Of a DNA stretch of 64,000 bases, positions 2,484 to 54,357 are shown piece after piece. A model generated the notes under the pieces. The model was not told the origin of the DNA and searched no databases. It saw only the letters and a program-made list of their open reading frames with translations. The position numbers and the translations under genes were made by a program. Source of the stretch: an uncultured Fimbriimonadaceae bacterium (GTDB lineage: Bacteria > Armatimonadota > Fimbriimonadia > Fimbriimonadales > Fimbriimonadaceae); NCBI GenBank assembly GCA_964576205.1, contig CAZNUL010000011.1, positions 756 through 64,755 on the forward strand, in the 5' to 3' direction. Each line of letters starts with the position of its first letter. Positions within the stretch are counted from its first letter, which is position 1.

Positions 2484-2523
2484 GGCTGATGGGCTGATGG
2501 TTGAGTAAAGTGATGGGCTGAAG
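2484..2523. repeat. Tandem octamer array, unit GGCTGATG (2 perfect and 3 degenerate units in register)
   Basis: Read directly: GGCTGATG GGCTGATG GTTGAGTA AAGTGATG GGCTGAAG. The unit is the reverse complement (rotated) of the octamer at 31164-31195. Confidence 0.8.
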
Positions 2524-2586
2524 TGCCCCCAACCTGCCCCAGCGGGTTGAAAGGATACCCCGATCCCAGGGGAGTACCATCTCCAC

Positions 2587-3624
2587 GTGGCGATCCACCT
2601 CCTGAATCCACTCTGGGACGCCTCCGGGGGCAGCGAGTGGCGCACGATCTCCCTGTTCCGCGAGCTCGCACCTCACGCCGAAGTCTCGGTCTGGACCGAA
2701 TACACTCCCGACCCTCGTCTCCTCGGTCAGGTCCCGATCAAGGAGATGCTCCAGCTCCAGTCCTTTCCGCGCGAGGGCACATTCGTATTCATCGGCGCCT
2801 ATTGGGAGGTCGGCAGATGGCTCACACAGGCCCGCCCCGACCGCGTTATCCTCGCCTACAACATCCCCGATCCGGAGACGCTCGATTACAGGATCTCGCA
2901 ATTAGAGGCAGTAACCGGCCGCAAGGTTGAGCTTCGATTCGCCTCTGATATGATGGCCAGGCATGCGAACGGGCGGCACGGAACAGTCGAGCTTTCCCCA
3001 ATCGACTTCGAGGTTTTCGCGCCCGGGAAGGCCACGCTAAGGACGGGTGGTCGCCCAGTGGTCGTGGGCCGGCATAGCCGCGATCAGACCTACAAGCATC
3101 ACCCAAACGATCCCGCGATCTATAAGCACCTGATCGGGCTCGAGTGCCAGGTGAGAGTTCTTGGCGGCATGTGCTTAGCGGATCGGGCGGCTTGGCTCAC
3201 CCGTGAATCAGTGACAATGGAGCCGACCCCTGATGAGGCATCGGTCTGCCTATCGGTCGATCGACCCATCAGTCTGATGCCCGCCAACTCCGTGCCCGCC
3301 CACGAGTTCCTTCAGGGCCTCGATATCTTCTTCTATCAAACCGATCCGAGTTGGACCGAAGCCTACGGACGAGTCGTCGCGGAGGCAATGGGATGCGGCC
3401 TTCCCTGCGTAGTGGAAGCCGGCGGAGGGTACGAGTCGTTGATCCGGCAATGTGAAAACGGGTTCACATTCAAAACCCAGGAGGAGGCTGTCGAACTGTT
3501 GGAACAACTGGTTGCAGATTCCGATCTTAGGGCACGGGTCGGCTGCTCAGCGAGGAAGAGCATCGTCGACCTTTACGATGCTGAGAGACAAAAGACGCTG
3601 GGCTTCTATCTCGCGGGACCTTAA
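2587..3624 (+). CDS. Glycosyltransferase, GT-B fold (family 1/4-like)
   Basis: C-terminal segment EAYGRVVAEAMGCGLPCVVEAGGGYESLIRQCENGF is typical of group-1 glycosyltransferases. GTG start. Confidence 0.7.
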   Translation: MAIHLLNPLWDASGGSEWRTISLFRELAPHAEVSVWTEYTPDPRLLGQVPIKEMLQLQSFPREGTFVFIGAYWEVGRWLTQARPDRVILAYNIPDPETLDYRISQLEAVTGRKVELRFASDMMARHANGRHGTVELSPIDFEVFAPGKATLRTGGRPVVVGRHSRDQTYKHHPNDPAIYKHLIGLECQVRVLGGMCLADRAAWLTRESVTMEPTPDEASVCLSVDRPISLMPANSVPAHEFLQGLDIFFYQTDPSWTEAYGRVVAEAMGCGLPCVVEAGGGYESLIRQCENGFTFKTQEEAVELLEQLVADSDLRARVGCSARKSIVDLYDAERQKTLGFYLAGP

Positions 3625-3747
3625 TGCCCACCCCTTCTGGCTCTTCCTCTATCCGCATTCTAACAGGCAGGTTGCAATCGGAGGCGGCCCGCGGCCATAA
3701 TCGTTAGGCCGCCCGAGGCATCGATTTGCTCGGCGAGGATTTTAACC

Positions 3748-3915
3748 ATGGCGAAGAAGGCCGAGAACCGCGAAATCATCCGTGTCGTGTGCACCGAGGA
3801 TGGAAAGAATTACTACACGACCACGAAGAACAAGCGCAACACGACGGACCGACTCGAGATCATGAAATACAATCCGAACTTGCGGAAACACACATTGCAC
3901 CGGGAGAAGAAGTAG
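3748..3915 (+). CDS. rpmG: 50S ribosomal protein L33
   Basis: 55-aa ORF, too short for the ORF track, hand-translated as [55 protein letters not shown]. It carries the L33 signature YTTTKNKRN...RKHT. Confidence 0.9.
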
Positions 3916-3942
3916 GAGCCTAAACACCTAGCACTGGGATTC

Positions 3943-3984
3943 AACTCCTAACTCCAAACTCCAAACTCCAAACTCCAAACTCGA
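3943..3984. repeat. Tandem heptamer array, unit AACTCCA (6 units)
   Basis: AACTCCT, AACTCCA x4, AACTCGA. The array ends 3 nt before the rpmF ATG. Confidence 0.95.
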
Positions 3985-3987
3985 GAG

Positions 3988-4176: not shown

Positions 4177-4213
4177 AGGGAGCCGTTCCCTCTACTCCGG
4201 TCACCAATAAATA

Positions 4214-4241
4214 AGCCCCGGCGAAGCACGCCGGGGCTTTT
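4214..4241. terminator. Bidirectional rho-independent terminator between rpmF and the PEP-CTERM gene
   Basis: 10-bp stem AGCCCCGGCG/CGCCGGGGCT with a 5-nt loop. It is followed by TTTT and preceded by an A/T-rich run, so it can serve both strands. Confidence 0.75.
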
Positions 4242-4260
4242 GTAATTTTTGGGGCTATCC

Positions 4261-5148
4261 TTATCGACTCGGGTTTCGGCGACGTCGAAGGAGCGCCAAC
4301 GCGCCGATCGAGAGTACGGCGATCGACGCGGGCTCCGGCACCGGGCTTACGCTGAAGTTGTCGTACCCTACTTGATCTCCGGCGCTGCCGCTGGCGAACA
4401 TGCGCACGGCGGTTGGGGCGGCTTGGCCGAGAACGTTGTTCTGGCCTCCCGTCAGATACCAGCCGTTTCCGGACACATCGATGGTCGTCGTACTGCCGCC
4501 GGTCGTGAGATTCCGGATCGAAGTCGACATGATCTGATTGGTCGTAAAGTTCCAGGTGACCGACATTCGATACCAGTCATTCAGGATCAGGCTCTGGAAG
4601 GCCGGGTCTGGGCTGCTGAAGTTACCGATGGTACTTGCTCCGGCGGCCGGCGCCCAGCCAATATTCGCGTTGAACGCATCGGCGTTCGCCGAGTGATCGA
4701 CCGGACTGGTCCATTGCATGATCGTCTGGAAGTAGTCCGATGACCCTGAAGGCTGGAGGGAAACGCTACCCAGGTTATCCGCGGCCGGTGGGGTGCCGAC
4801 AAATTTGCCGTTAAAGTCGTAGGCGAGCGTCCAGGTTCCGCCGGCGGCAAAACTGACATCGTGCTGGGCCCGCGTAGGAGTTTGCGCGGTCGTCACATTG
4901 CCAGCGAAGAACTGGTTCCCGCCACTCGGGTCAGCGTTGAACCCGAGTGCGTTTCCGCTATAAGTGTAAATGCTGCCGTCGATGCTCCCGGAAATGGGGT
5001 TGTACCATCCGTTCTGACCGCCCCCGCCAAAGCCGTTGGTGAGCAGCGTGCCTGCGGCCGAGCCGGACTCCGACTCGAAGTTGTCGCTGAACTGGGCAAA
5101 GCAGGCTGCTGCCAGCGCTGCGATCGCAAAACTAAAACCGAACTTCAC
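4261..5148 (-). CDS. Secreted PEP-CTERM sorting-domain protein
   Basis: Signal peptide MKFGFSFAIAALAAACFA. The C-terminal VPEPASIAVLSIGALALLRRRR has the PEP motif, a TM segment and a basic tail. Confidence 0.85.
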   Translation of the reverse strand: MKFGFSFAIAALAAACFAQFSDNFESESGSAAGTLLTNGFGGGGQNGWYNPISGSIDGSIYTYSGNALGFNADPSGGNQFFAGNVTTAQTPTRAQHDVSFAAGGTWTLAYDFNGKFVGTPPAADNLGSVSLQPSGSSDYFQTIMQWTSPVDHSANADAFNANIGWAPAAGASTIGNFSSPDPAFQSLILNDWYRMSVTWNFTTNQIMSTSIRNLTTGGSTTTIDVSGNGWYLTGGQNNVLGQAAPTAVRMFASGSAGDQVGYDNFSVSPVPEPASIAVLSIGALALLRRRRNPSR

Positions 5149-5268
5149 CGTTTACCCCCCGGAGCACACGAGCCAACTGCGCGAAACCTTCCGCGCAAAA
5201 CGAACAGCCTAGTTATAGCGCGATCAGGAGCAAACGGGGACGGTTTGATACCCGTGAACTTACTGGTT

Positions 5269-5340
5269 TTTGGAATTTGGAATTTGGAATTTGGAATTTG
5301 AGGTGTTTGGAGTTTGGAGTTTGGAGTTTAGGATTTGTTG
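5269..5340. repeat. Composite tandem heptamer array: TTTGGAA x4, then TTTGGAG x3 with degenerate flanking units
   Basis: Read directly. The TTTGGAG sub-array is the reverse complement (rotated) of the AACTCCA array at 3943-3984. Confidence 0.95.
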
Positions 5341-5393
5341 GGAGTCTCGTTGAGGGGGATTTCACCGCGAGGCACTGTGAGCACGAAGGATCG

Positions 5394-5414
5394 GATTTCA
5401 GATTTCTGATTTCG
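5394..5414. repeat. Tandem heptamer array, unit GATTTCN (3 units)
   Basis: GATTTCA GATTTCT GATTTCG, the same unit type as the array at 24325-24359. Confidence 0.8.
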
Positions 5415-5472
5415 GGTGCTGAATTGAGTCTGCGCGCTCGGCTCTTGGCCATGGGTCACAATCTCCTCGGCG

Positions 5473-6304: not shown

Positions 6305-6332
6305 TGTGGTTTGCGGCTTGTGGCTTGTGGTT
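6305..6332. repeat. Tandem heptamer array, unit TGYGGYT (4 units)
   Basis: TGTGGTT TGCGGCT TGTGGCT TGTGGTT, about 100 nt upstream of rpsO. Confidence 0.85.
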
Positions 6333-6435
6333 TGAATACCCCAACGCCCAATACCTCAATACCCTCCCGAACGGGGAGCCTGCGCAGAGCGGCTAACCTA
6401 GGACGGTCTCGAGATACGGGAGCACGACTTTTAGC

Positions 6436-6717
6436 ATGCCGCTGGAAAAAACTCGAAAGCAATCTGTGGTTACGGAGCACGCTCGATCGGAGGGGGACAC
6501 CGGTTCACCCGAAGTCCAAATCGCGCTAATGCAGGCGAGAATCCTGCAGATCACGGATCATCTCCGAACGAACAAAAAGGATTTTCACTCGCGCCGCGGG
6601 CTGATGATCCTCGTCGGGAAACGCCGCCGCCTAGAGGGCTATCTGCGCGCCAAGGATATCAACCGCTACCGCGAGCTGATCAAGAAGCTCGGCATACGCG
6701 AAGTCAAGCCCCGCTAG
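6436..6717 (+). CDS. rpsO: 30S ribosomal protein S15
   Basis: [51 protein letters not shown] is a canonical S15 sequence. The gene lies upstream of pnp, as in many bacteria. Confidence 0.95.
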
Positions 6718-6721
6718 ATAC

Positions 6722-6741
6722 GGCCTTACGGTGTTAAGGCC
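6722..6741 (+). terminator. Hairpin just after rpsO (possible attenuating terminator or pnp leader processing hairpin)
   Basis: 7-bp stem GGCCTTA/TAAGGCC with a 6-nt loop and only a short T tract. The rpsO-pnp intergenic hairpin is a known regulatory site in E. coli. Confidence 0.35.
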
Positions 6742-6767
6742 TTACGGCATTGGTACAGTCCAAGGCC

Positions 6768-6791
6768 GCAACGCCTCAACGCCGTAACGCC
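6768..6791. repeat. Tandem octamer array, unit NNAACGCC (3 units)
   Basis: GCAACGCC TCAACGCC GTAACGCC in the pnp leader, 10 nt upstream of the AGGAGG RBS. Confidence 0.7.
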
Positions 6792-6810
6792 CCGATTGGC
6801 AGGAGGCAAA

Positions 6811-9270
6811 ATGATACATTCCCACGAGTTCGAGGTTGGTGGCAAGACCATCTCCCTCGAAACCGGACGCGTCGCGAAACAGGCAGGCGGCGCGGTTCTT
6901 CTCGGCATGGGCGAGACGGTGATCCTTGGGGTCGCCACCATGTCCGAAAACGCCCGAGAGGGCATCGATTTTCTCCCCCTCGTCTGTGACTACGAGGAGC
7001 GGAAGTACGCCGTCGGGAAGATTCCGGGCGGATTTATGAAGCGCGGCGGAAGGCCGTCCGAAAGGGCGACGCTGACGAGCCGCTTGATGGACCGGCCGAT
7101 CCGGCCGCTCTTCCCCAAGGGTCTGCGAAACGACCTTCAGATCATCGCGATGCCATTCGCGGTCGACCAAGCTTGCCCGCCCGACGTCCTTGCGATCGTC
7201 GCCGCCGGCGCCGCCCTCGCAGTCAGCGATATTCCCGCGACACAGATCGTCGCCGGCGTCCGGATCGGACGCGTCGACGGTAAGTTCATCGTCTTCCCAT
7301 CTGTCGGCGAGCAAAAAGCCGGCGATCTCGACCTCGTCGTTGCCGGCCACAAGGGCGCGATCTCGATGGTCGAAGCTGGCGCGAGCGAAGTCTCGGAAGA
7401 GGTCATGACGGAAGCTTTGAAGGTTGCCCACAAAGCGATCGTCCAGATCTGCGGCGAGATCGAAAAGTTTGCCAAAAAGGCCGGCAAGGAGAAGCGAGAG
7501 GTTAACCTTCACTCCATCGATGAGAACCTCAAGAAGGCGATCAAAAAGGAACACGGCAAGGAGATTTCCAAGGCTCTGATCCAGAGCGACAAGGCGGTCC
7601 GCGAGTCGGCCCTCGACGACCTGAAGAAGGAGATCGTCGAGAAACTCAAGCCGGGATATGAGAATGACTCTGTTCTCCTCGCTCAGCTTCCCGAAGCTGT
7701 CGACACGGTCGTCAAAGGCACCGTCAGAGAGCTGATTATCGACAAGGATCAGCGTCCGGATGGACGCAAACTCGACGAGATCCGCCCGCTTGAAGCGGTT
7801 GCCGGACTTCTGCCGAAGGTGCATGGCTCCGGCCTCTTCACCCGGGGCCAAACCCAGGTCATGACGGTCGTGACGCTCGGCCTTCCCGGCGAAGCGCAGA
7901 CAATGGACGGTCTAGAGGAGGAAGAGCCGAAGCGCTACATGCACTTCTATAACTTCCCGCCATACTCGGTCGGCGAGGTTCGGCCAATGCGGGCTCCCGG
8001 CCGGCGGGAGATCGGCCACGGCGCCTTGGCGGAAAGAGCCTTGCGCCCGATGATCCCGCTCGATGATCCAGACTTCCCGTACACGCTGCTCCTCACGAGC
8101 GAAGTACTCGAATCGAACGGTTCCACGTCGATGGCGTCGGTCTGCGGCTCGACGCTGGCTTTGATGGACGCCGGCATCAAGATCAAGGCGCCAGTCGCCG
8201 GTATCGCTATGGGCCTGATGAGCGATGGCAAGACCTTCAAGGTTCTCACCGACATCATCGGCATGGAGGACTTCTGCGGCGACATGGACTTCAAGGTCGC
8301 GGGAACTCGAGACGGAATCACCGCACTTCAGCTCGATACGAAGCTGGAAGGGATTCCCGACGATGTGCTCGCCAAGGCGCTAGCCCAAGCGAAGAAGGCG
8401 AGGTTTGAGATCCTCGACGTCATTGAGGCTGAGATTTCGGAACCGCGGGCTACCGTCGCTTCCACCGCGCCCCAGGTCACGACGATCAAGATCAACCCCG
8501 AGAAAATCGGGGCCGTCATCGGCCCGGGTGGTGCGGTGATCAAGAAGATGACCGCGGAGACCGGGGCTTCAATCGACATCCAGCAGGACGGCACCGTCCT
8601 CGTTGGCGGCACGAACGCCGAGCAGGTCGAAGAAGCGATTGCGCGCATTCGAGCCCTTACGGAGGATATAGCGGTCGGAACCGAGTTCCACAACGTGTCG
8701 ATCACGCGGCTGATGGGCCGCGGAGCGATGGCGGAGTACATTCCCGGGAAGGAGGGCCTGATCCCGACCGATCACCTGGTTCCCGGCGGCGCTCGCCGGC
8801 CCGACGACGTCGTCCAGATTGGCGACAAGGTGAACGTGAAGGTCTTCGAGGTTGACTCGCAGGGCCGGATCAACCTGACCGCGCTTGGGATCGCCCAGGA
8901 GCACCCGAACATGCAGGAGAACGAGAAAGCCACACCTCCAGCCGGGTTCGGCGGTGGTGGAGGCGGCGGCCGCTTCGGCGGACGCGGCGGAGATCGCGAC
9001 CGGGGACGCGGTGGAGATCGCGGCGGCCGCGACGGACGCGATGGACGGGGCGGTGGACGCTTTGGCGGACGAGATCGCGACCGCGACCGCGACCGGGGTC
9101 CTCGCGAAGATCGCGACCGGCCTCCTCGCGACAGCGGAAATGATGCACCGGTTGCGACTCAGGAGCGCGCTCCCGAGAGCGCTCCGGATGTGCCGGACGC
9201 CTTCCCGACGCGGAATCGCGGCGGCGACGACGACGACAGCGTGAACGCGCGTTTCCGCCCTCGACGGTAA
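6811..9270 (+). CDS. pnp: Polynucleotide phosphorylase with a C-terminal RGG/RD-rich low-complexity tail
   Basis: Two RNase PH domains, KH and S1 regions are readable (e.g. GSGLFTRGQTQV, NGSTSMASVCG). ATG 6811 is preferred over the track's TTG 6796 because AGGAGG sits at 6801-6806. Confidence 0.95.
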   Translation: MIHSHEFEVGGKTISLETGRVAKQAGGAVLLGMGETVILGVATMSENAREGIDFLPLVCDYEERKYAVGKIPGGFMKRGGRPSERATLTSRLMDRPIRPLFPKGLRNDLQIIAMPFAVDQACPPDVLAIVAAGAALAVSDIPATQIVAGVRIGRVDGKFIVFPSVGEQKAGDLDLVVAGHKGAISMVEAGASEVSEEVMTEALKVAHKAIVQICGEIEKFAKKAGKEKREVNLHSIDENLKKAIKKEHGKEISKALIQSDKAVRESALDDLKKEIVEKLKPGYENDSVLLAQLPEAVDTVVKGTVRELIIDKDQRPDGRKLDEIRPLEAVAGLLPKVHGSGLFTRGQTQVMTVVTLGLPGEAQTMDGLEEEEPKRYMHFYNFPPYSVGEVRPMRAPGRREIGHGALAERALRPMIPLDDPDFPYTLLLTSEVLESNGSTSMASVCGSTLALMDAGIKIKAPVAGIAMGLMSDGKTFKVLTDIIGMEDFCGDMDFKVAGTRDGITALQLDTKLEGIPDDVLAKALAQAKKARFEILDVIEAEISEPRATVASTAPQVTTIKINPEKIGAVIGPGGAVIKKMTAETGASIDIQQDGTVLVGGTNAEQVEEAIARIRALTEDIAVGTEFHNVSITRLMGRGAMAEYIPGKEGLIPTDHLVPGGARRPDDVVQIGDKVNVKVFEVDSQGRINLTALGIAQEHPNMQENEKATPPAGFGGGGGGGRFGGRGGDRDRGRGGDRGGRDGRDGRGGGRFGGRDRDRDRDRGPREDRDRPPRDSGNDAPVATQERAPESAPDVPDAFPTRNRGGDDDDSVNARFRPRR

Positions 9271-9297: not shown

Positions 9298-9336
9298 ATC
9301 GGCGGCGAGGCCATCGGCCTCGCCGCCGATTGTTTG
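9298..9336 (+). terminator. Strong hairpin after pnp
   Basis: 15-bp perfect stem ATCGGCGGCGAGGCC/GGCCTCGCCGCCGAT with a 3-nt loop, followed by TGTTTG (weak U tract). Confidence 0.6.
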
Positions 9337-16317: not shown

Positions 16318-17652
16318 ATGAGTCTTCCCGCACGGCATTCACAGGCTCCTCGATTCGCAGGGCACGTATGGTTCTTGATCCTCAGCGTGATCCTGATTGC
16401 CGGCTGCGGCACCGGCTACCCGCCCGGAACGGTCGTGCTGCGCGTCGGCAACTGGGGCGGTGCGAAGGAAGGGAACGATTACGACCGAAAGGTCGACAAG
16501 ATCTACCGCGACTTCGAAAGGGAGAACCCTGGCGTGATCCTTCGCGAAGAGAACATTCCCGACTCAAACGACTATGTCGCAAAGATTTGCCAGGCCTACA
16601 TCGCCAAGGCGGAGCCCGACATCGTCAGCCTCGACGCCTCGAGCTCGGCCCTGTTCATTAAGAGCGGCATCGTCACTGATCTGACGCCGTTGATTCGGAA
16701 GGATCCCGGATTTCATCTCGGAGACTACTATCCGAACGTCGTCGACATCGCGCGACGAGGCGATGCTCTCTACGCGATCCCGCAAGACTTCACGCCCATG
16801 GTCGTCTACTACAACCGGAAGGTTTTCGATCGGGCGCATGTGGCCTATCCGACGTCCGACTGGAACTACTCGCAATTCAGGGAGATAGCGCGAAAGCTGA
16901 CGGTGGCAGGCATGGACGCGGGGCGCAAACAGTACGGCTTCGCGTTCACGAACTGGGTGCCGGGATGGGTCATGTGGATCTGGAACAATGGCGCGGATCA
17001 CCTATCCCCGGACGGCTCGCGGGCCATTGGGTATTTGGATAGCGCGAAGTCGGTCGCAGCGGTTACGTTCCTGGCGGACATGGTGAAAGAGGGCTTAGCC
17101 CCCTCGATCAGCCAGGCGGCCGCGCTGGGGGTCGACCCATTCGCAAACGGTCAAGCCGCGATGGCGATTTCCGGCCACTGGTCGATGGTGGGATATAACG
17201 CAGCTCCCAAGGGACCGGATGGGAAGCCGAAGATCAGTTGGGATGACCTCGGAGTCGTCGCTCTGCCTCACAATATCCCCCGGTCGCAAACCGTAATGTA
17301 TGAATCCGGATACGCCATTGGCGCCCATTGCAGGCACCCAGACATCGCGTGGAAGTTCATTCGCTATATGACCAGCCACCGGGTCCAGACGATCTATCAA
17401 GAGAGCGGCATTGCCGTCTGCGCACGGCGGGACGTCGCCGAGGAGCGGGCCAAGTCCTCTCAGCTCGAAGCGGAGTTCATCCCGATCATTCCGAGCGCGC
17501 GACCACCCTATGGGGCAAAGATCGACGGATACAGTTTCGTCGAGGACCAGGTGCAAAAGGCGATGGACGGAATCCTTGAGAACCACCGCGATCCGAAGTG
17601 GGCCCTCACCCGGGCCGCAAGTGCCATCGAACGGGAATGGGAAAAGAAATGA
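16318..17652 (+). CDS. ABC transporter sugar-binding lipoprotein (solute-binding family 1, CUT1)
   Basis: Lipobox LIAGC. The size, the W/Y-rich family-1 pattern and the two MalF/MalG-type permease genes that follow support the call. Confidence 0.8.
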   Translation: MSLPARHSQAPRFAGHVWFLILSVILIAGCGTGYPPGTVVLRVGNWGGAKEGNDYDRKVDKIYRDFERENPGVILREENIPDSNDYVAKICQAYIAKAEPDIVSLDASSSALFIKSGIVTDLTPLIRKDPGFHLGDYYPNVVDIARRGDALYAIPQDFTPMVVYYNRKVFDRAHVAYPTSDWNYSQFREIARKLTVAGMDAGRKQYGFAFTNWVPGWVMWIWNNGADHLSPDGSRAIGYLDSAKSVAAVTFLADMVKEGLAPSISQAAALGVDPFANGQAAMAISGHWSMVGYNAAPKGPDGKPKISWDDLGVVALPHNIPRSQTVMYESGYAIGAHCRHPDIAWKFIRYMTSHRVQTIYQESGIAVCARRDVAEERAKSSQLEAEFIPIIPSARPPYGAKIDGYSFVEDQVQKAMDGILENHRDPKWALTRAASAIEREWEKK

Positions 17653-17779
17653 TGCCTCGCTTGAGTTGCCATCCCAACCAGGGCCGCGAGTTGAGCCAGT
17701 ATCGCCGGGGCAAAAGCTTTCGATGCCGACTTGCGCTCACGGCGGGATCGCCCGTCCTAACGCAAGTGGCTAACACGGC

Positions 17780-18685
17780 ATGACAATCCGCAATCCGCAA
17801 TTCGCAATTCGCAATCGGGCCACCCCCTGGCTGTTCGTCGCCCCGGCACTCGTGCATCTGTTCGTCTTTGCTCTGATCCCAATCGGTTACGCCTTCTATT
17901 TGAGCCTGTTCAAGCAGCATTTGATTTACGGAACTCCTCGCTTCGTAGGGGCGGACAACTACGCCTACACGTTCACCGACGGGCCCTTTTGGAACGCGAT
18001 GTGGAATTCGGCTCGCTACGCCCTTCTGAGCGTTCCCCTCGGCATGGTGGTCGGGCTTGGCGTAGCGCTGCTCGTCAATCAAAAGCTCCGCGGGGTCACC
18101 ATCTTCCGCACGCTGTACTACGTTCCCTCGATCGCATCTGGCATCGCTTTATCGATGCTCTGGATCTATGTATATCTGCCCGAAAACGGAATGATCAATA
18201 CCGTGCTCGGCTGGCTGGGTATCACGACGAAGACCGACTTTCTCAACAACATCACCTGGGCAATGTGGGCACTCGTCATCATGGCGGCTCTCAACGGCGT
18301 CGGCCCGAAGATGATCCTATTCCTTGCCGGGCTGGTTAACATCCCGCCGGAACTCTACGAAGCGGCTTCGCTCGACGGGGCAAGCCGAACGAGAACGTTT
18401 TGGCGGATCACCATTCCAATGCTCGCTCCGACCACGTTCTTCATCATGGTGACCTCGACGATCGCGGCGATGCAGATCTTCACGCCGGTCTATCTGATGA
18501 CGAGGGGAGGCCCGGAGGACTCGACCGACGTCGTCGGCTTTCACATCTATCGGGAAGCATGGGTCCAATTCAACACAGGCCTCGCGGCCGCCCAGAGCTT
18601 TATCCTGCTCGCGGCAATTGCGGTGATCGCGGTCGCGCAGTTCAATCTTCAGAGGCGTCAGCTCGGGAGGTATTCGCTCACATGA
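17780..18685 (+). CDS. Sugar ABC transporter permease (MalF/UgpA-like)
   Basis: Multi-TM protein with the EAA-loop region EAASLDGASRTRTFWRITIPML. The ATG is followed immediately by a heptamer array. Confidence 0.85.
   Translation: MTIRNPQFAIRNRATPWLFVAPALVHLFVFALIPIGYAFYLSLFKQHLIYGTPRFVGADNYAYTFTDGPFWNAMWNSARYALLSVPLGMVVGLGVALLVNQKLRGVTIFRTLYYVPSIASGIALSMLWIYVYLPENGMINTVLGWLGITTKTDFLNNITWAMWALVIMAALNGVGPKMILFLAGLVNIPPELYEAASLDGASRTRTFWRITIPMLAPTTFFIMVTSTIAAMQIFTPVYLMTRGGPEDSTDVVGFHIYREAWVQFNTGLAAAQSFILLAAIAVIAVAQFNLQRRQLGRYSLT
17784..17818. repeat. Tandem heptamer array, unit CAATYCG (5 units), inside codons 2-13 of the permease gene
   Basis: CAATCCG x2, CAATTCG x2, CAATCGG, translated as TIRNPQFAIRNR. 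Confidence 0.95.
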
Positions 18686-24078: not shown

Positions 24079-24321
24079 ATGAAACAGATCAAGGTGCAGT
24101 ACTACGCGATCTTTCGAGAGCAGCGCGGATTAAGCGAAGAGGTCATCCAAACCGCTGCCGTCACCGCCCTAGACCTTTATCAGGACCTCGCAACTCATCA
24201 CGGTTTCTCGTTGACCCCAAGTCTGGTGCGCGCAAGCGTCAACCTCCAATTCAAGGCTCTTGACACCGAACTCTCCGACGGAGACGCGGTCGTGTTCATC
24301 CCGCCCGTGGCCGGAGGCTAA
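24079..24321 (+). CDS. moaD: Molybdopterin synthase sulfur-carrier subunit
   Basis: 80-aa ubiquitin-like protein ending in the GG motif (PPVAGG). Confidence 0.85.
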   Translation: MKQIKVQYYAIFREQRGLSEEVIQTAAVTALDLYQDLATHHGFSLTPSLVRASVNLQFKALDTELSDGDAVVFIPPVAGG

Positions 24322-24324: not shown

Positions 24325-24359
24325 GATTTCGGATTTTGGATTTCGGATTTCGGTTTTCG
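24325..24359. repeat. Tandem heptamer array, unit GATTTYG (5 units)
   Basis: GATTTCG GATTTTG GATTTCG GATTTCG GTTTTCG, starting 4 nt after the moaD stop. Confidence 0.95.
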
Positions 24360-24417
24360 GAGACAAACCAAGGTTTGAAACCCAGATTCTCCCTCCCCTG
24401 CGGGCCCGGAGCCGGCA

Positions 24418-29124: not shown

Positions 29125-29159
29125 GATTGACGATTGACGATTGACGATTGACGATTGCG
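29125..29159. repeat. Tandem heptamer array, unit GATTGAC (5 units; GTCAATC on the moaA sense strand)
   Basis: GATTGAC x4 plus GATTGCG, beginning 3 nt upstream of the preferred moaA ATG. Confidence 0.95.
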
Positions 29160-29973: not shown

Positions 29974-32688
29974 GTGAATAGCTTTAGCGCCAAGGCGACC
30001 CTCAGCTGCGGCGGAACAGACTACACCATTTACCGCCTGGACGCCCTCGAGAAATTTGGCGTCGAAACCAGCAGACTTCCCTACTGTCTCCGCGTTCTCC
30101 TCGAGAACCTGCTTCGGACCGAAGACGGCATTTCCGTCACTTCCGCCGACATTCTCGCCCTTGGTGGCTGGGAACCGCATGCCGACCCCAGCGAAGAGAT
30201 CTCATTCACGCCGGCTCGCGTCCTACTGCAGGACTTTACGGGAGTGCCCTGCGTCGTCGACCTCGCCGCGATGCGCGAAGCCATGGCAAAGCTGGGAGGC
30301 GATGCAAAAAAGATCAACCCGTTGCAGCCGGTGGAACTCGTTATCGATCACTCGGTGCAGGTCGATGCATACGGCAGCGATGCGGCTCTTCTGATCAACC
30401 GCGACTTCGAATACGATCGCAACAAGGAACGCTACGAATTTCTTAAGTGGGGTCAGATGGCCCTCGACAACTTCCGGGTCGTCCCCCCCAATACCGGCAT
30501 CGTCCATCAAGTCAACCTGGAACACCTCGCGCGGGTGACTTTCGTAAACGCGGAAAACGTCGCCTATCCCGACACTTTGGTCGGTACCGACAGTCACACG
30601 ACGATGATTAACGGCCTTGGCGTTTTGGGCTGGGGAGTCGGCGGGATCGAGGCCGAGGCCGCGATGCTGGGTCAGCCGGTGACGATGCTCATTCCCCAGG
30701 TCGTCGGGTTCAAGCTGACGGGAAAACTGAAGGAAGGCTCGACCGGCACCGACCTCGTCCTCACGGTTACCGAGATGCTGCGAAAGAAAGGAGTGGTCGG
30801 CAAGTTTGTCGAGTTCTATGGACCGGGCGTCGCCACTCTACCCCTCGCCGACCGGGCGACGATCGGCAACATGGCGCCCGAGTACGGGGCGACCTGCGGC
30901 ATCTTCCCAGTCGACCGGGAAACGCTCAACTATATGCGGCTGACCGGACGTTCCGAATCGCAGATCGAACTCACGGGGGCGTACTACCGCGAGCAAGGGA
31001 TGTTCCTCGAGGAAGGATCGCCGGAGGCCGAATATAGCGACACCCTGGAACTCGATCTCGCTACGGTTGAGCCGTCGATCGCGGGACCGAAGCGGCCACA
31101 GGATCGCCTTCGCTTGAGTGAAGCTCGTGAGAACTTCCATCGTAGCTTCCCGGATGCCACCCACAGCCCATCAGCCCATCAGCCCATCAGTTCATCCGCC
31201 GGGAGTGTGGCCTTATTGGAGGCGCCAACTCAGGCCGAAACGGAAGCCAACGCGGCTGCGGACAAGGTCGGCGACGGCTCCGTCGTCGTCGCTGCGATCA
31301 CAAGCTGCACGAACACATCGAACCCTTCGCTGATGCTGGCCGCCGGCCTTGTCGCCAAGAAGGCGATCGAGAAAGGGCTCGACACCAAACCGTGGGTCAA
31401 GACCTCGCTTGCGCCGGGCTCGCGCGTCGCGACCGACATGTTCAATAAGACGGGCTTGATGAAGTACCTCGAACAGCTCGGATTCAACGTGGTTGGTTAC
31501 GGCTGCACGACCTGCATCGGCAACTCGGGCCCGTTGCCACAGGCGATCTCGCACCGGGTCAACGAAGAGAGCCTCGTCGTATGCAGCGTTCTGAGCGGCA
31601 ACCGCAACTTCGAAGGACGCATCAACCAGGATGTCAAGGCGAATTACCTGATGTCGCCGCCGCTCGTCGTGGCCTATGCTCTGGCCGGGACGATCGATAT
31701 CGACCTCACCCACGATCCTGTCGGCATCGGGAAAGACGGCCGGGTGATCTTTCTGAGAGAGATTTGGCCGACCCAACAGGAGATCGCCGATGTTCTTGCC
31801 CAAGGTGTCAAGCGCGAGCTCTACGTCGACAATTACGCGGACGTGTTCAAGGGCGACGATAAGTGGAACGCAATCAAGGTATCGGGAACCGACCAGTTCA
31901 AATGGGATGGGGCATCGACTTACGTTAAGAATCCGCCGTACTTCGACGGCATGCCTGCCAAAGCGCCGAAAGGAGTTAGCGATCTTTCGGAAATGCGGTG
32001 CCTTGCCCTTCTTGGCGACAGTGTGACCACCGACCACATCTCGCCAGCCGGATCGATCAAGCTGAATTCACCCGCCGGTCAATACTTGACCGAACACGGA
32101 GTCGCACCCGCGATGTTCAACAGCTATGGGTCGAGGCGCGGCAACCACGAGGTTATGGTGCGAGGCACGTTCGCGAATATCCGTCTTCGGAATCAGATGG
32201 CCCCGGGAACGGAAGGCGGATTCACGGTTTACCTGCCGACCGGCGAGGTGACGACGATTTTCGAAGCGGCCGAGAAGTATCGACAGGACGGGACGCCCCT
32301 CATCGTGCTCGCGGGCAAAGAGTATGGAACGGGCTCCAGTCGCGACTGGGCGGCCAAAGGCACTTTCATGCTCGGAATCAAGGCCGTCATCGCCCAGAGC
32401 TTTGAGCGGATCCACCGCTCGAACCTCATCGGGATGGGTGTCCTCCCCCTGGAGTTCGTGGACGGTGAAAGCGCCTCAGAGCTCAAACTAACCGGTAGAG
32501 AGACTTTCAGGCTCGACGGTCTAAGCGAAGCCGTCGAAATCGATTTTCGTAACGGCAAGGTCCTGGAAATGCTGGCCGACGACAAATGGTTCAATGTCCG
32601 GGTCCGGATCGACACCCCGCAGGAGCTGCAGTATTACAAGAACGGTGGAATCCTGCAGTATGTGCTGCGCCAGTTGCTTGCGTCCTAA
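29974..32688 (+). CDS. acnA: Aconitate hydratase A
   Basis: Fe-S cluster ligand motifs [10 protein letters not shown] and [10 protein letters not shown]; 904 aa. Confidence 0.95.
31164..31195. repeat. Tandem octamer array, unit CAGCCCAT (3 perfect and 1 degenerate), in frame inside acnA
   Basis: Read directly. The array encodes part of [11 protein letters not shown] in a linker segment of aconitase. Confidence 0.9.
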
Positions 32689-41488: not shown

Positions 41489-41501
41489 CCCTTGTGCGGG
41501 G

Positions 41502-41647
41502 GGTAGTGGGTCAGTTTGGATGTGGCATCGCCTTCTAGGCGATGTGTGCCAGGAGCTTCCAGCTCCTGCTTCCGGCGGCTGGAAGCCGTCGACACACACT
41601 CCGGCAAGATGCCGGAGCCACGAGAAAATGCAAACTGAGCCACTACC
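41502..41647. mobile_element. MITE-like element: 146 bp with 17-bp terminal inverted repeats and a flanking direct repeat
   Basis: GGTAGTGGGTCAGTTTG (41502-41518) matches the reverse complement of CAAACTGAGCCACTACC (41631-41647) at 16 of 17 positions. TGCGGGG abuts both ends (41495-41501 and 41648-41654). The interior holds 3-4 hairpins. Confidence 0.6.
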
Positions 41648-41687
41648 TGCGGGGGCCGAATTCAGGTTCAAAAGGTAAACTTCTGAG

Positions 41688-43556
41688 ATGCCCGCTCACA
41701 TCCGCAACGTCGGCATCATCGCGCATGTCGACCACGGAAAGACGACGTTGGTCGACGCCATTTTCAAGCAGGCGGGAATCTTTCGCGAGAACCAGCACAT
41801 GGGCGAGCGGATCATGGATTCGAACGACCTCGAGCGTGAAAAGGGCATCACGATTCTTTCGAAGGTCGCGAGCGTTCGCTACAGAGACATTAAAATCAAC
41901 ATCGTCGATACTCCCGGCCACGCCGATTTCGGCGGCGAAGTCGAGCGCGTGCTGTCGATGGTCGACGGCGTGCTGCTCGTCGTCGACGCAAACGAGGGTC
42001 CGATGCCGCAAACGCGATTCGTCCTCAAAAAGGCATTTGAGAACAAGCTGAAGCCGATCGTCTTCATCAACAAGATCGACAGGGACAACGCACGCCCGCT
42101 TCACACCTACGACAAGACGATCGACCTCTTCATAGACCTCGGCGCCGATGAGGACGACCTGTTCTTCCCTCACCTCTATGGAAGCGGGGCAGGAGGCTAT
42201 GCCCGTGTCGAACCGGACGGCGGCGAAAAGGACATGCGCGAGCTGTTCGAAATGATCGTCAACGCGATCCCACCGCCTCGAGTCGAGTTGGAGGGCGCTT
42301 TCCTGCTCCAGGTCAACAATCTCGATTACAGCGATTATCTCGGCCGGATGTTCGGCGGCAAAGTTCTGCGCGGAACAGTAAAGGTTGGCGACCGAGTCGA
42401 GCAACTTCGCGAGGGCAGCGACAAAAAGTCCGGCTTCAATGTGACCAAGCTCTGGACTTACGAAGGGATCCAGATGAAGGAGGTCGAGGAAGTCTCGGCC
42501 GGCGAGATTGCCATGCTCGCCGGACTTGACAACGTGTTGATCTCTGACACCATCGCCCATGTTGATTCCACCGAACCTCTCCCGGCGATCAAAGTCGAGC
42601 CATCGACCCTTTCAATGAACTTCTATGCCAACAACTCGCCGCTCGCGGGCAAGGATGGCGGGCGATTCCTCACGATTCACAAGATCCGGGAGCGAGTCGA
42701 GAAAGAGGAAGCCGTCTCTGTCAGCGTGAAGATCGATACGAACACCGCTCCGGATACCGTGAAGGTGCAGGCCCGGGGTGAGCTACAGCTCGCCATCCTC
42801 GTCGAGACAATGCGGCGCGAGGGCTACGAAATGCAGATCTCGCGCCCGCAGGTGATCTATCAACGTGGCATCTCGGAGGGGTCGCCGGCCAGCCATCGAC
42901 AAGGCGCCGATGCCACCGTGTACGAGCCGTTCGAAATCGCGATTCTGGAGATGCCCGAGGAGTCGGTTGGACTCGCGATGGAGGACATGAGCCGGCGCAA
43001 GGGCGACCTCGTCGATATGCGCAAGAGCGATACCGGCACGACCACGCTCGAGTACTCGATACCGACCCGCGGGCTGATTGGATTTCGATCCCAATTCCTG
43101 ACCATGACGCGCGGCCTCGGAATCATCTCGAGCCTGTTCGACGGCTACAAGCCCTACAAGGGTGAAATCACCGACCGGACCCAGGGCTCGCTGATTGCCA
43201 AGGACCCAGGGAAGCTGACCCGCTATGCTTACGAAGATGTTCAGGAGCGGGGCACGCTTTTCTATCCGGTGGGAATCGACGTCTACGGGGGCATGATCGT
43301 CGGAGCATGCTCGCGTGACGAGGACATGATCGTCAACGCGACCAAGGAGAAGCACGCGACGAACATCCGCTCCGCGACCTCCGAATCGACCATCGCCCTC
43401 GATCCTTATAAAGAGTTCTCGCTGGAACAAGCGCTCGCCTGGCTTCGCGACGACGAGCTCCTTGAGGTCACGCCAAAGCAGCTTCGCTTCCGGAAGAAGA
43501 TCCTCGACCATTCTGAGCGCCGCGTTTCCGAGCGGCGCAGCGAGGTTCTGGTTTAG
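41688..43556 (+). CDS. typA: Translational GTPase TypA/BipA
   Basis: G1 motif [24 protein letters not shown] and NKIDR, with EF-G-like domains. Confidence 0.95.
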
Positions 43557-48443: not shown

Positions 48444-48462
48444 CCTAGCTCGGCCGGGCGAC

Positions 48463-50903: not shown

Positions 50904-50963
50904 ATCGCAACGACGCGGCCTATGCTTGATCGGTTCGCCGGCTTCGGTCCACGGATTACCGTT

Positions 50964-50991
50964 TACCGATTATCGCTTACTCACTCAATAG
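50964..50991. repeat. Degenerate tandem heptamer array, unit GNTTAYC (4 units)
   Basis: GATTACC GTTTACC GATTATC GCTTACT, spanning the glpX stop codon region. Confidence 0.6.
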
Positions 50992-51983: not shown

Positions 51984-52142
51984 CTTTCCTTCCCTGGGCA
52001 TAAGACCACTTTACTCGCACCCTTGTTTGTCGGGTTTTTTGGGTCGGTTCGACAGGTTATTGGACCGTTTCAGGGCGCCGGAGGTCTTTGTCCCGTTCGC
52101 AGACCACACTCACAGACATGCCGCGCCAGGTTCGCCTCTGCT

Positions 52143-53102
52143 ATGCTCAATCGCGGCATGTCCCGGACACGAGCTTTGCAGGCTTTTCAGCGGTATCAGG
52201 GGCTGATCGGGCTGGCGATCCTTTTCATCGTCGCCTTCTTTCTGGCGAGGCAGGAGTTCTTCTCGTCGGAGAACGCGATCAACATCTTGAAGCAGCTCGC
52301 CGTCCCGGGAACATTGGCGATTGGGATGACCTTTGTGATCCTCACCGGCGGCATCGATCTCAGCGTCGGGTCCCTTCTCGCTCTCGGCAACGTGATTCTG
52401 GCCGAGTGGGCTCAAAGCGGGACCGGCTTCGTCTACTCGATTGCCTATGCGATCGCCTTGAGCGCCGCAATCGGCGCCCTCGTCGGCTGGCTCATCGGGG
52501 CGACCAAACTCCAGCCATTCATCGTCACGTTGGCTGCGATGGTGACTCTGCGCGGAGTTTGCTATCTGTACACAGATAACAAGATCGTCTCGATAACGGA
52601 CGACCGATTCGCCTTCCTTCAGGATCCGCATCTCGGATTGCCAATCTCGGCGTGGATACTGCTGGTCGTGACCCTTCTCGGATGGGCCCTGCTGCGCTTC
52701 ACCATATTCGGCCGCGGGGTCTATGCCCTTGGCGGGAACGCGATCGCGGCAAAGGTCTCGGGAGTCCGAACGAACCGGGTGCGGATGGCCGCGTTCGCCA
52801 TCAACGGGCTGTGCGTTGGGATCGCCGCGATCCTGTTCACGGCACGGACGAATACTGGGCAGCCGAGCAGCGGGAACGGCTACGAACTGGACGCGATCGC
52901 CGCCGTCGTGGTGGGCGGTTCATCCTTGGTCGGAGGCATTGGAAACATTTTCGGAACCTTTGTTGGCGCTTTGTTTATGGGTTGCGTCAATACGCTGCTC
53001 CAACTCAAGGGCGTCGACCCCTTCGTCGGGATGGGGTGGAAAGGCCTTATTATCCTGCTTGCCGTCTACCTACAGAACATTGGGCGATCGACTTCGGCCT
53101 AG
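52143..53102 (+). CDS. Ribose/monosaccharide-type ABC permease (RbsC-like), orphan
   Basis: Multi-TM protein with FVILTGGIDLSVGS and AVVVGGSSLVGG, typical of the RbsC/AraH family. There is no adjacent ATPase or binding-protein gene. Start may be 52143 or 52158. Confidence 0.7.
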   Translation: MLNRGMSRTRALQAFQRYQGLIGLAILFIVAFFLARQEFFSSENAINILKQLAVPGTLAIGMTFVILTGGIDLSVGSLLALGNVILAEWAQSGTGFVYSIAYAIALSAAIGALVGWLIGATKLQPFIVTLAAMVTLRGVCYLYTDNKIVSITDDRFAFLQDPHLGLPISAWILLVVTLLGWALLRFTIFGRGVYALGGNAIAAKVSGVRTNRVRMAAFAINGLCVGIAAILFTARTNTGQPSSGNGYELDAIAAVVVGGSSLVGGIGNIFGTFVGALFMGCVNTLLQLKGVDPFVGMGWKGLIILLAVYLQNIGRSTSA

Positions 53103-53386
53103 CAATCCAAGAGCGGCGGCAGAGCGAGCGATTCGTTGACCACGCCCACGTACCAATGCCCATCTTCCTTGATCGGAGTCTCGTGCCAGTCATAGAGGTA
53201 CCCGGAGACGAGGTCCGCCTTGGGTAGCTTAGAGTCGAGCCGATACCTCGGGAGCCAGACTTCCGAGAGCACGGGATAAAAGTCCGACGGCATCGGTGGC
53301 TGCATCAGCGTGTAGTCGTCCGAGACGTCCACGACGATGATCTTCACCAGGTTCAATTTCCAAAGGCATCCTGCCAATTGAGCCAT
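53099..53386 (-). CDS. Hypothetical 95-aa protein downstream of motB
   Basis: ORF only, with no motif recognised. It starts 52 nt after the motB stop on the same strand, and its stop overlaps the permease stop by 4 nt. Confidence 0.3.
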   Translation of the reverse strand: MAQLAGCLWKLNLVKIIVVDVSDDYTLMQPPMPSDFYPVLSEVWLPRYRLDSKLPKADLVSGYLYDWHETPIKEDGHWYVGVVNESLALPPLLDC

Positions 53387-53438
53387 GAAGTTCCTCGCCC
53401 TTCAGGACGAGGAGACCGGTGGATTTGGAGCGATTTCC

Positions 53439-54317
53439 TTAGGGATGTGCGATGTTCAGGGTCGGGGGCTTGACCTGGACACCAGGTACGACCGTTTGGC
53501 TCATCTGTCGACGGACGTCGTCTTTGGGCTTGGTAATCGTTGCCGTCAGGGGAGCCTCGTACGGCAGCAAGATCGTGACTCGACGATTGACGCCACTCGT
53601 CGGATGAGCCGGGTCTTTGAGCATCGTGTCGCCCTTGCCGGCCATGTCGGTGACCCGGTTGTAGTTGACGCCGGCATCACCCAGTGCCGCTCCCAGCGAG
53701 CGGGCGCGCTCCGTGCTGAGCTTCAGATTCCCCCACGGATCGCCTCCAAAGGGCACGGTGTCGGTATGGCCCTCAATGCTCATTTTTCGGCCGGACGCCG
53801 CCAGTTTGGCGCCGACGAACTTGATCACTTTGAGCGCCTTTGGCTTGATGACGGCGCTTCCGGTTTCGAAGAAGAAGTTCCGATCCTCCATGAACTCGAT
53901 GCGGAGTCCCTGATCGGTGACCTCGATCTTCACGTTCTGGATAGCCAGCTTCAACGTCGGGTCCGAGGACATCTGCTTCAGCATGCGATCGCCCAATTCT
54001 CTCAGGGTTTTGTGATCGTCCTCAAATGGCATGTTCGACTTCAGGGTGCCGGATGCCCCGGAGCCCGGCTTGTGCGACATGATCGTCTTCGGAGCGATCA
54101 CCAGCTTGCTGCGGGATGGGCTTTTGAACCCCATCGGGTCGTTGAAATATCCTTGAATCTGGGCTCGCGTGTCGTCCGATAAACCCATGATCCACATGAC
54201 CATGAAGAACGCCATCATCGCGGTAACGAAGTCGGCATAGGCGACCTTCCACGAACCGCCGTGATGGGCGTGGCCGTGCGCCTTTTTCTTCTTGATGATG
54301 ATCGGGGTCGCGTCCAT
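53439..54317 (-). CDS. motB: Flagellar stator protein MotB (OmpA-like C-terminus)
   Basis: HGGSWKVAYADFVTAMMAFFMVMW TM/plug region with the conserved Asp. The C-terminal peptidoglycan-binding part contains NRRV. Confidence 0.85.
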   Translation of the reverse strand: MDATPIIIKKKKAHGHAHHGGSWKVAYADFVTAMMAFFMVMWIMGLSDDTRAQIQGYFNDPMGFKSPSRSKLVIAPKTIMSHKPGSGASGTLKSNMPFEDDHKTLRELGDRMLKQMSSDPTLKLAIQNVKIEVTDQGLRIEFMEDRNFFFETGSAVIKPKALKVIKFVGAKLAASGRKMSIEGHTDTVPFGGDPWGNLKLSTERARSLGAALGDAGVNYNRVTDMAGKGDTMLKDPAHPTSGVNRRVTILLPYEAPLTATITKPKDDVRRQMSQTVVPGVQVKPPTLNIAHP

Positions 54318-54322
54318 GAGAT

Positions 54323-54357
54323 CAGGGTGCAGGGTGCCGCCTGCAGGGTGTCGGGCA
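54323..54357. repeat. Tandem heptamer array, unit CAGGGTG (3 perfect of 5 units)
   Basis: CAGGGTG CAGGGTG CCGCCTG CAGGGTG TCGGGCA in the motA-motB spacer. On the sense strand it ends 5 nt before the motB ATG. Confidence 0.8.

Follow-up and report, generated by a model that had tools for sequence, protein, structure and literature searches.

Tandem heptamers are well known from cyanobacteria, where the short tandemly repeated repetitive (STRR) sequences, reportedly described by Mazel et al. in 1990, form genome-specific unit families in intergenic DNA. The role of heptanucleotide families and the reason for a unit of 7 nt have been a standing question since the STRRs were described in 1990. 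Here, we analyzed a window of 64,000 nt (the whole stretch of DNA under study, positions 756 to 64,755 of contig CAZNUL010000011.1, from an uncultured Fimbriimonadaceae bacterium, a soil-type member of the sparsely studied phylum Armatimonadota) that contains a dispersed family of head-to-tail arrays of 7- and 8-nt units. We consider it fairly probable that these arrays are slippage-driven simple repeats that are tolerated in transcribed spacers, and that some of them have been exapted as RNA stems or leaders.

Simple sequence repeats with 5-11-nt units (long simple sequence repeats, LSSRs) were surveyed by Mrazek, Guo & Shah in 2007. As that survey is summarized in later papers, such repeats are scattered among lineages and occur in free-living bacteria with large genomes, not in host-adapted pathogens; heptanucleotides are the most abundant long class in most surveyed bacterial genomes, and polymerase slippage over a footprint of about 7 nt was proposed (PMC4679880, PMC4692102). 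In Xanthomonas, Rehm et al. (2015) reported about 185 GGGAATC arrays per genome, mostly intergenic and of 2-26 units, the length varying by species and the type of site (single array or inverted pair) being kept between related species; 70-75 close 'convergent' inverted pairs are able to form stem-loops (PMC4692102). MacGregor (2015) described TAACTGA repeats of 2-6 copies in Beggiatoaceae, cyanobacteria, and Bacteroidetes, most of which lie in one orientation a few nucleotides 5' of start codons, with occasional copies in open reading frames (ORFs). Many of the genes downstream of TAACTGA have no Shine-Dalgarno motif, and ribosomal protein genes are among them (PMC4679880).

Distribution of the arrays in the window and in relatives

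Arrays were located in the whole window by Tandem Repeats Finder (TRF) and by a separate period scan, which in its strict form required at least 3 copies with a mismatch penalty of -3. The strict scan kept six period-7 arrays and one period-8 array, and 30 dinucleotide-preserving shuffles of the window gave zero arrays of period 6 or more. As a control, 50 kb of E. coli DNA, rpsO-pnp included, held no period-7/8 array of at least 2.8 copies. An earlier reading of the letters alone (the sequence-only reading) had listed twelve arrays and had proposed shuffled controls, which bear it out. Ten of the twelve loci are solid by TRF and the period scan, and those at 2484 and 50954 are marginal. Its further statements that the period is 7 and sometimes 8, and that units recur at distant loci in either orientation, agree with our results: AACTCCA (3943) is the reverse complement of TTTGGAG (5305), and GGCTGATG (2484) is that of CAGCCCAT (31164). 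GATTTCN (5394) also resembles GATTTYG (24325).

Chance might account for the arrays at 2484 and 50954, and the remaining two-copy TRF matches in the window are at chance level. For the ten solid loci this explanation is refuted, as the shuffles give none. Orthologous arrays in independent assemblies (five for the pnp leader and three for the acnA loop) exclude an artefact of assembly, and the reading frames run intact through the coding arrays.

Ten of the twelve loci are non-coding, and non-coding DNA makes up about 12% of the window (binomial p = 4e-8). The genes were mapped crudely, from ORF length and GC content at third codon positions together with Pfam assignments and tRNA calls. When all loci were pooled, 46 of 74 arrays lay outside such crude ORF calls, which cover 87% of the sequence. 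The placement of all arrays in spacers by the sequence-only reading is thus right for ten loci and wrong for two, since the array at 31160 lies inside the aconitase gene and that at 17784 forms codons 2-13 of a permease. Arrays in coding DNA are removed by selection unless they keep the frame and occupy a permissive loop, as in aconitase, or an N-terminus, as in the permease. A sigma-70 promoter scan around the arrays gave a match count near the shuffle expectation and no overlap with the arrays. No Rfam family matched any array, the rpsO leader, or the pnp leader. Dispersed single motifs resembling uptake sequences were rejected, as the units are not over-represented outside the arrays.

The window was compared with regions of relatives (L-numbered loci) in two sets: 1.32 Mb around pnp (80 loci) and 0.53 Mb of metagenomic contigs with a PhyH neighbour. 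The 80 loci came from a PNPase search and were nearly all labelled Fimbriimonadaceae, Fimbriimonadales, or Armatimonadota; the best was 90% identical, and no exact PNPase match was on record. The closest relatives by aconitase (AcnA) were 83-84% identical and belong to Fimbriimonadaceae metagenome-assembled genomes (MAGs). Fimbriimonas ginsengisoli was rejected as the source, its AcnA being only 68% identical. By its sequence, the window is from an undescribed member of the Fimbriimonadaceae. Its coding density and GC content by codon position are similar to those of the F. ginsengisoli genome (PMC4072686). A search of metagenomes with the PhyH protein, made for a strain-level comparison of copy number, returned nothing above 84% amino-acid identity.

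Among arrays with at least 2.8 copies, the first set contained 26 of period 7, nine of period 8, none of period 5, and one each of periods 10 and 11; the corresponding numbers in the second set were 27, 14, three, zero (period 10), and two (period 11). Among periods not divisible by 3, period 7 dominates, followed by period 8. Array density per kb was about 0.16 in the window, 0.03 in the first set, and 0.08 in the second, and the three closest acnA loci, in which 8-mers dominate, had a density similar to that of the window.

Leader hairpins and arrays next to start codons

The pnp leader contains the 8-mer CAACGCCN (3.9 copies, 6761-6791, plus strand) as the 3' arm of a hairpin, the 5' arm of which is an inverted 8-mer array, GGCCTTAC GGTGTTAA GGCCTTAC GGCATTGG (6722-6753, plus strand). 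This hairpin (6722-6791) begins 5 nt past the stop codon of rpsO, and 20 nt separate its end from the pnp ATG (6811). Its stem has about 30 pairs (-39.5 to -41 kcal/mol), and the fold z-score is -3.8 for the 98-nt spacer and -5.9 for a trimmed 78-nt stretch. The same inverted-array architecture was found at rpsO-pnp in L002, L076, and L016, each with its own unit, and at least the 3' arm is present in L001, the contig of which ends here. The unit reads AACGCC in the window, AACACC in L076, and AATACC in L002, with a matching 5' arm each time, and the hairpins of L002 and L076 have z-scores of -4.9 and -5.8, respectively. The RNAalifold consensus of the hairpins in the window, L002, and L076 contains 23 pairs, five of them with compensatory double changes. 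In the best-supported account of the arrays, the pair in the pnp leader, if no other, is preserved as an RNA stem.

In most relatives, the rpsO-pnp spacer is absent and the rpsO stop is directly followed by GGAGG and ATG; five occupied spacers contain an array hairpin of 70-140 nt. The palindrome CCGTTAACGG lies at the rpsO stop of array-free relatives. Inverted pairs would form long stems, and the hairpin in the pnp leader lies at the position of the autoregulatory stem-loop of E. coli that is cleaved by RNase III. In E. coli, the cut in this long stem-loop starts PNPase autoregulation (PMC5029454). Both leaders place a long imperfect hairpin between rpsO and pnp, just 5' of the ribosome-binding site. 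They share no sequence homology, however; the stem in the window consists of 8-mer arrays in inverted orientation, and most members of the family lack it.

The rpsO leader carries TGYGGYT (4.3 copies, 6305-6334, plus strand) about 100 nt 5' of rpsO, followed by a degenerate C/A-rich partner, CCCAACG CCCAATA CCTCAATACCC (6338-6365, plus strand). In the window and in L002, conserved flanks enclose a G/T-rich array, a loop, and a C/A-rich array, and the G/T-rich arm of L002 is a different one. The hairpin has z = -0.5 in the window, no better than shuffles, and z = -2.8 in L002.

Two arrays lie between the divergent genes of a PEP-CTERM protein (start 5148, minus strand) and a dioxygenase of the PhyH family (ATG 5473). 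The first is a composite of about ten TTTGGAA/TTTGGAG heptamers (5265..5340, plus strand; TRF 5269-5337, 9.6 copies), in which four TTTGGAA units, a spacer, three TTTGGAG units, and a degenerate tail follow one another. Its plus-strand RNA self-pairs via G-U and A-U (z = -2.2), whereas the minus strand does not fold. The second, GATTTCN (2.9 copies, 5394..5414, plus strand; TRF 5394-5413), lies 59 nt 5' of the PhyH ATG. Another array, GATTTYG (5.3 copies, 24325..24361, plus strand), begins 4 nt past the stop of a small ORF (24079-24321), which we take to be moaD-like from its operon position only, and ends 57 nt 5' of a gene for a MoaE-ThiF-rhodanese fusion (ATG 24418). Together with a partial downstream partner, it forms a hairpin no better than shuffles. 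Because most window arrays fold like shuffled sequence, an RNA-structure role is backed only for the pnp leader and, weakly, for the block at 5265-5340. Antisense transcripts were also considered, as the first eight hairpins hinted at better antisense folding; this idea was dropped because 33 hairpins with flanking gene orientation gave no consistent rule.

Besides the CAACGCCN array, which stops 20 nt short of pnp, three arrays abut start codons. AACTCCA (5.7 copies, 96% matches; 3943..3984, plus strand; TRF span 3943-3982) occupies the gap between rpmG (L33, 3748-3915) and rpmF (L32, ATG 3988) and ends 3-5 nt before rpmF; on the mRNA it is C/A-rich, G-free, and unstructured. A promoter-like site (3672-3701) and a terminator (4213-4239) belong to the rpmG-rpmF unit. 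GATTGAC (4.7 copies, 100% matches; 29125..29159, minus strand; TRF 29125-29157), read as CAAUCGU in the moaA mRNA, ends 2 nt 5' of the moaA ATG (29122-29120, minus strand). CAGGGTG (4.0 copies, 71% matches; 54323..54357, minus strand; TRF 54323-54350), read as CACCCUG in the mRNA, lies in the gap between motA (stop 54393) and motB (ATG 54317), 5 nt short of the motB start. On the plus strand, antisense to motB, it presents four GGG tracts (loops of 4, 11, and 4 nt), a possible G-quadruplex; no other window array has this GGG-tract potential.

No Shine-Dalgarno-like motif was found at rpmF, moaA, motB, or the permease gene, unlike pnp, which has a strong AGGAGG 3' of its array. At all seven independent sites with an array no more than 20 nt from a start codon, relatives included, the C/A-rich, G-poor strand is in the mRNA (p = 0.008). 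Such arrays might provide an unstructured leader in place of a Shine-Dalgarno motif, and a change in copy number would then tune expression or, for the permease, switch it. An ORF behind a hairpin of L031 was at first read as rpmF, which would have made a shared rpmF leader; this was rejected after tblastn, in which none of the other loci had a homologue of L32 or L33, and therefore no orthologous comparison of the rpmF leader is available.

The two marginal arrays have the following settings. The 8-mer GGCTGATG (2484..2523, strand not assigned) consists of 2.1 perfect copies and a degenerate third; its neighbours are tRNA-Pro (2402-2478, minus strand), the 5' end of which is 5 nt away, and a glycosyltransferase ORF (GTG 2587) located 64 nt 3' of the array. 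GATTACC/GCTTACC (50954..50991, minus strand, 75% matches) spans the glpX stop (50985-50987) and its 3' flank, about 50 nt 5' of the next minus-strand ORF (ATG 50903). Beside the first of them, positions 20-2478 contain an initiator of rolling-circle replication (Rep_trans, 20-727), then a large serine recombinase (881-2413; domains Resolvase, Recombinase, and Zn_ribbon_recom), running into tRNA-Pro(cgg). This region looks like the edge of a mobile element integrated at a tRNA gene.

Additionally, two structures outside the arrays were observed. Between an HD-domain gene and typA/bipA (ATG 41688), a multi-branched structure of about 165 nt (41489-41655) was predicted; the fold of 41489-41690 (202 nt) has -100 kcal/mol and z = -6.5, with nested inverted repeats. 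It matched no Rfam family and, from this predicted fold, is a candidate for an unannotated leader or small RNA. Just past the pnp stop (9270), a perfect 15-bp inverted repeat with a 3-nt loop (9298-9330) is, from its sequence, a likely terminator.

Coding arrays, unit turnover, and the origin of the arrays

CAATYCG (4.7 copies, 17784..17818, plus strand; TRF 17784-17816) forms codons 2-13 (TIRNPQFAIRNR) of an ABC sugar permease gene (ATG 17780; BPD_transp_1). A change of one unit would shift the frame because no alternative in-frame start was found for the permease. This array, right after the only usable start, suggests that the arrays might be contingency loci, that is, hypermutable switches selected for phase variation of adjacent genes. 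In H. influenzae, heptanucleotide repeats between the hmwA promoters grade expression (PMC8262952). The position expected for phase variation was, however, found only at 17784. Most arrays precede housekeeping genes (rpmF, rpsO, pnp, moaA, and acnA), in which on/off switching would be harmful, the copy numbers are low (3-10), and long repeats of 5-11-nt units are, as the 2007 survey is cited, typical of free-living bacteria with large genomes and not of host-adapted pathogens (PMC4679880). Contingency loci are thus a very unlikely explanation for the family.

Inside the aconitase A gene (29974-32688), four copies of the 8-mer CCCATCAG (4.0 copies, 31160..31195, plus strand; TRF 31160-31190) lie in frame and encode 12 residues of a length-variable surface loop. 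The length of this loop varies across the family, and an S/P-rich stretch is common to the closest relatives. The loop of L163 reads CCCATCAG CCCCTCGA CCCCTCAG CCCCTCGG (CCCMTCRR), that of L164 contains 4.4 copies of TCACCCCC, and that of L162 is without an array and contains 'ACCCAT'. In L162 (Fimbriimonadaceae MAG DASZYX010000002.1), the UbiD gene (17365-18987) has two in-frame insertions that are absent from E. coli UbiD (2idb), relative to which they comprise residues 55-85 and 228-261. Each insertion holds an array of the 8-mer TTGGAGGA, in opposite orientations, and one is a complete arm-loop-arm hairpin module.

Inverted pairs are common in the family. A search within 200 nt for a partner matching the reverse complement at 12 or more of 14 bases succeeded for 12 of 43 arrays (about a quarter) and, in the reverse-only control, for 0 of 43. 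The pairs of the relatives have fold z-scores from -3 to -10, and several sit between convergent genes. Such spacers are the usual place of terminators or REP-like stabilisers (REP, repetitive extragenic palindrome), and the pairs found there in relatives would occupy the place of such hairpins. The G/T-rich arm is 5' in 22-27 pairs and 3' in 6-9 (p about 0.004), a property of an inverted repeat that reads alike on both strands; the two arms have independent copy numbers, and the units show a modest keto/amino skew (p = 0.004). In L025, composite arrays of TCCAAAA-type and then TCCGCAC-type units were observed at two sites 3.6 kb apart (860-1010 and 4500-4700), and those at the first site have a direct repeat, CTCCGCCTTCCGCTCTTCCCA, of about 21 nt on their flanks.

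These features raise the question of insertion. The arrays might be footprints of a palindromic element resembling a REP, a miniature inverted-repeat transposable element (MITE), or a Rickettsia palindromic element (RPE), or of templated repeat addition at the 3' ends of a break. Pairs with the G/T-rich arm first on either strand, the independence of the arm copy numbers, units common to non-orthologous sites, and the rpsO-pnp spacer that is empty in most relatives and filled by an array hairpin in five speak for this view, as does the single 8-mer of the two UbiD insertions. However, no conserved termini, loops, or target-site duplications were found when occupied and empty pnp-leader sites were compared. 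The copies share a short unit and no full-length element, many different units coexist in each genome, two sites have possible local seeds, and selection favouring a C/A-rich arm beside the ribosome-binding site can likewise lead to the 5'-G/T polarity. Moreover, no transposase, REP-associated tyrosine transposase (RAYT), or reverse transcriptase is linked to the window arrays, the only hint being a weak Y1_Tnp match in L164. We regard insertion footprints as unlikely.

A more specific version, to which we give slightly less credence, is a lineage-specific process that lays down modules, for example by adding 7-8-nt repeats at both 3' ends of a break and joining them, with later exaptation as the rpsO and pnp RNA stems. 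Repeat addition and joining would directly give the order G/T-rich array, junction, C/A-rich array. If true, it would explain the G/T-first pairs with independent copy numbers and the genome-specific unit families, as well as the abrupt filling of empty spacers and the in-frame insertions in the L162 UbiD and window aconitase genes.

At one site shared by L018 and L019, the unit is GCCAACT in both, with 7-9 copies in the former and about four in the latter, and the flanks are 74% identical. The comparison of copy number between relatives that the sequence-only reading had recommended gives differences at this site, in the pnp leader, and in the acnA loop. Because orthologous sites differ in unit and copy number, copies evolve in concert within a species and the copy number drifts. 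Concerted units with a drifting copy number are, as far as these alignments tell, exactly what repeated slippage would produce, and possible local seeds are 'ACCCAT' in the L162 acnA loop and the CCGTTAACGG palindrome at the rpsO stop.

In the mechanism that we favour, the arrays would arise and change length by slipped-strand mispairing in replication, with a lineage-wide preference for 7 and then 8 nt, and slippage would also make the copies of one array alike. The inverted partners and the spread of units between sites probably come from template switching or from ectopic conversion of one array by another. Because selection purges coding DNA, the arrays build up in spacers that are transcribed, namely 5' leaders, gaps between cistrons, and 3' ends. 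Most of them are probably near-neutral, and some might have been taken over at the RNA level.

Several results weigh against this mechanism, the first being the recurrence of units. Within genomes, 10 of 58 pairs of units at non-orthologous sites are identical or one base off, versus 3% between genomes (p about 1e-5), and six pairs are identical, versus 0.4% between genomes (p about 1e-7). Local slippage alone does not predict such recurrence at distant sites. L163 also has the octamer CAGCCCAT in an intergenic position and, elsewhere, an array of six copies of GGCGTTGG, which is complementary to the pnp-leader unit. Related genomes have a few units in common (CAGCCCAT, CAACGCC/GGCGTTG, and TTGGAG-). 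The UbiD arrays of L162, judged from their sequence, look more like module insertion than gradual growth. The absence of the spacer from most relatives means, therefore, that the pnp hairpin is dispensable in the family, and apart from the structures described above, the window arrays fold no better than shuffled sequence. In addition, slippage is read from between-species copy-number differences at orthologous sites alone. The recurring units and UbiD modules would also be compatible with ectopic conversion between arrays, with modules inserted ready-made, or with selection on particular units. Unit recurrence, the 5'-G/T polarity, and the UbiD insertions are not accounted for by slippage, and they lend a low probability to a model of insertion or repeat addition.

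Families of units shared between genomes were considered and rejected, as identical units numbered four against about 1.2-1.7 expected with orthologous pairs removed, weakly above chance.

Selection on the units could mean that the arrays are sites of one or a few sequence-specific RNA- or DNA-binding proteins and form a regulon, either post-transcriptional or transcriptional. Binding of ToxR to TTTTGAT heptads of ctxAB would be a parallel at the DNA level. A protein-binding role was proposed by MacGregor for the TAACTGA repeats, the candidates being S1, Csp, or CsrA-like proteins (PMC4679880). The greater recurrence of units within than between genomes, the one-strand arrays right before starts without a Shine-Dalgarno motif, the unit kept between L018 and L019 despite flanks of 74% identity, and the keto/amino skew are in line with this possibility. 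On the other hand, no fewer than eight plainly distinct units occur in the window (AACTCCA, TTTGGAA, TGTGGCT, CAATCCG, GATTGAC, CAGGGTG, CAGCCCAT, and CAACGCC), genomes share units hardly more often than chance predicts when orthologues are set aside, and single copies are not enriched outside the arrays. The downstream genes also lack a common theme (ribosomal proteins, molybdenum cofactor synthesis, motility, and sugar transport). A regulon of this kind is quite improbable.

The orthologous sites at the pnp leader, the rpsO leader, the aconitase loop, and a convergent-gene spacer are useful in that the array persists there as its unit and copy number change together, and empty sites in sister species add comparative material. 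The lineage is thus suited to asking whether RNase III acts on a repeat-built stem, how initiation proceeds without a Shine-Dalgarno motif, whether the permease frame is switched, and whether the 5'-G/T polarity, shared with Xanthomonas, stems from the mechanism of origin or from selection. For annotation, such arrays should be expected in Armatimonadota, and their in-frame presence in conserved genes need not mean an error.

Comparison with known repeat systems

CRISPRs consist of 21-48-nt repeats with unique spacers, usually accompanied by cas genes, whereas the window units are 7-8 nt and contiguous, and the exclusion of CRISPRs by the sequence-only reading stands. Its exclusion of hairpin-type REP elements holds only in part. 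REPs and bacterial interspersed mosaic elements (BIMEs) are imperfect palindromes of 20-40 nt that have a conserved 5' tetranucleotide, many near-identical copies, and a RAYT associated with them, whereas hairpins of the window type share only a short unit. The array at 6768 is, however, the arm of a hairpin whose partner at 6722-6753 had been missed, the TTTGGAA/TTTGGAG block self-pairs, and about a quarter of the arrays in relatives are paired. RPEs are 100-150 bp, conserved over their full length, and found in frame within genes. The L162 UbiD insertions and the window aconitase loop show a similar in-frame tolerance, but only the 7-8-nt unit is shared here. A Pfam scan that covered about 20 of the window ORFs, and not the others, found no RAYT. 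In L164, a 160-aa gene with a weak Y1_Tnp (IS200/RAYT-like) match lies directly 3' of acnA (6345-6827); the same position has a PDDEXK_3 gene in L162 and no gene in the window.

The cyanobacterial STRRs, named by the sequence-only reading as the closest analogue, are a fair one. The window shares with them the tandem heptamers, the genome-specific families of units, and the intergenic location, and differs in host lineage; STRRs are also much more numerous per unit type. The four STRR units tried (CCCCAGT, CCCCAAT, TTGGTCA, and CAACAGT) do not occur in tandem in the window, and neither do GGGAATC, hmw ATCTTTC, or ctx TTTTGAT. Because no named unit occurs in tandem, the window arrays belong to none of those specific heptamer families.

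The arrays at rpmF, moaA, and motB share the layout of the TAACTGA repeats (2-5 nt from the ATG, C/A-rich in sense), which is a likeness of layout only and not family membership. TAACTGA is a single heptamer without one occurrence in the window; a relative, L005, has 5.9 copies of CAACTGA. The GGGAATC arrays of Xanthomonas and the GGGGAYT arrays of Nostoc form the same convergent pairs with the G-rich arm first as the Fimbriimonadaceae arrays. They are built, however, from one dominant G-rich unit capable of forming a G-quadruplex, whereas the window has many units, mostly without G-runs.

No paper was found on such arrays in Armatimonadota or linking Fimbriimonas to tandem repeats, which agrees with the statement of the sequence-only reading that they were not described in this lineage, and the text of the F. 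ginsengisoli genome paper contains neither 'tandem' nor 'heptamer'. Its view of the arrays as the most unusual structure in the window overstated their rarity. They are less unusual because the heptamer class is broader and better known, in Xanthomonas and Nostoc as well as Beggiatoaceae. Like the LSSRs as they are summarized in later papers, the window arrays are spacer-less head-to-tail arrays of 5-11-nt units that are longer than expected by chance, led by heptamers, and mostly intergenic. Those summaries name no Armatimonadota, and 8-mers form a clear second class here. The Fimbriimonadaceae arrays are thus a new lineage for the general LSSR class and not a new kind of element.

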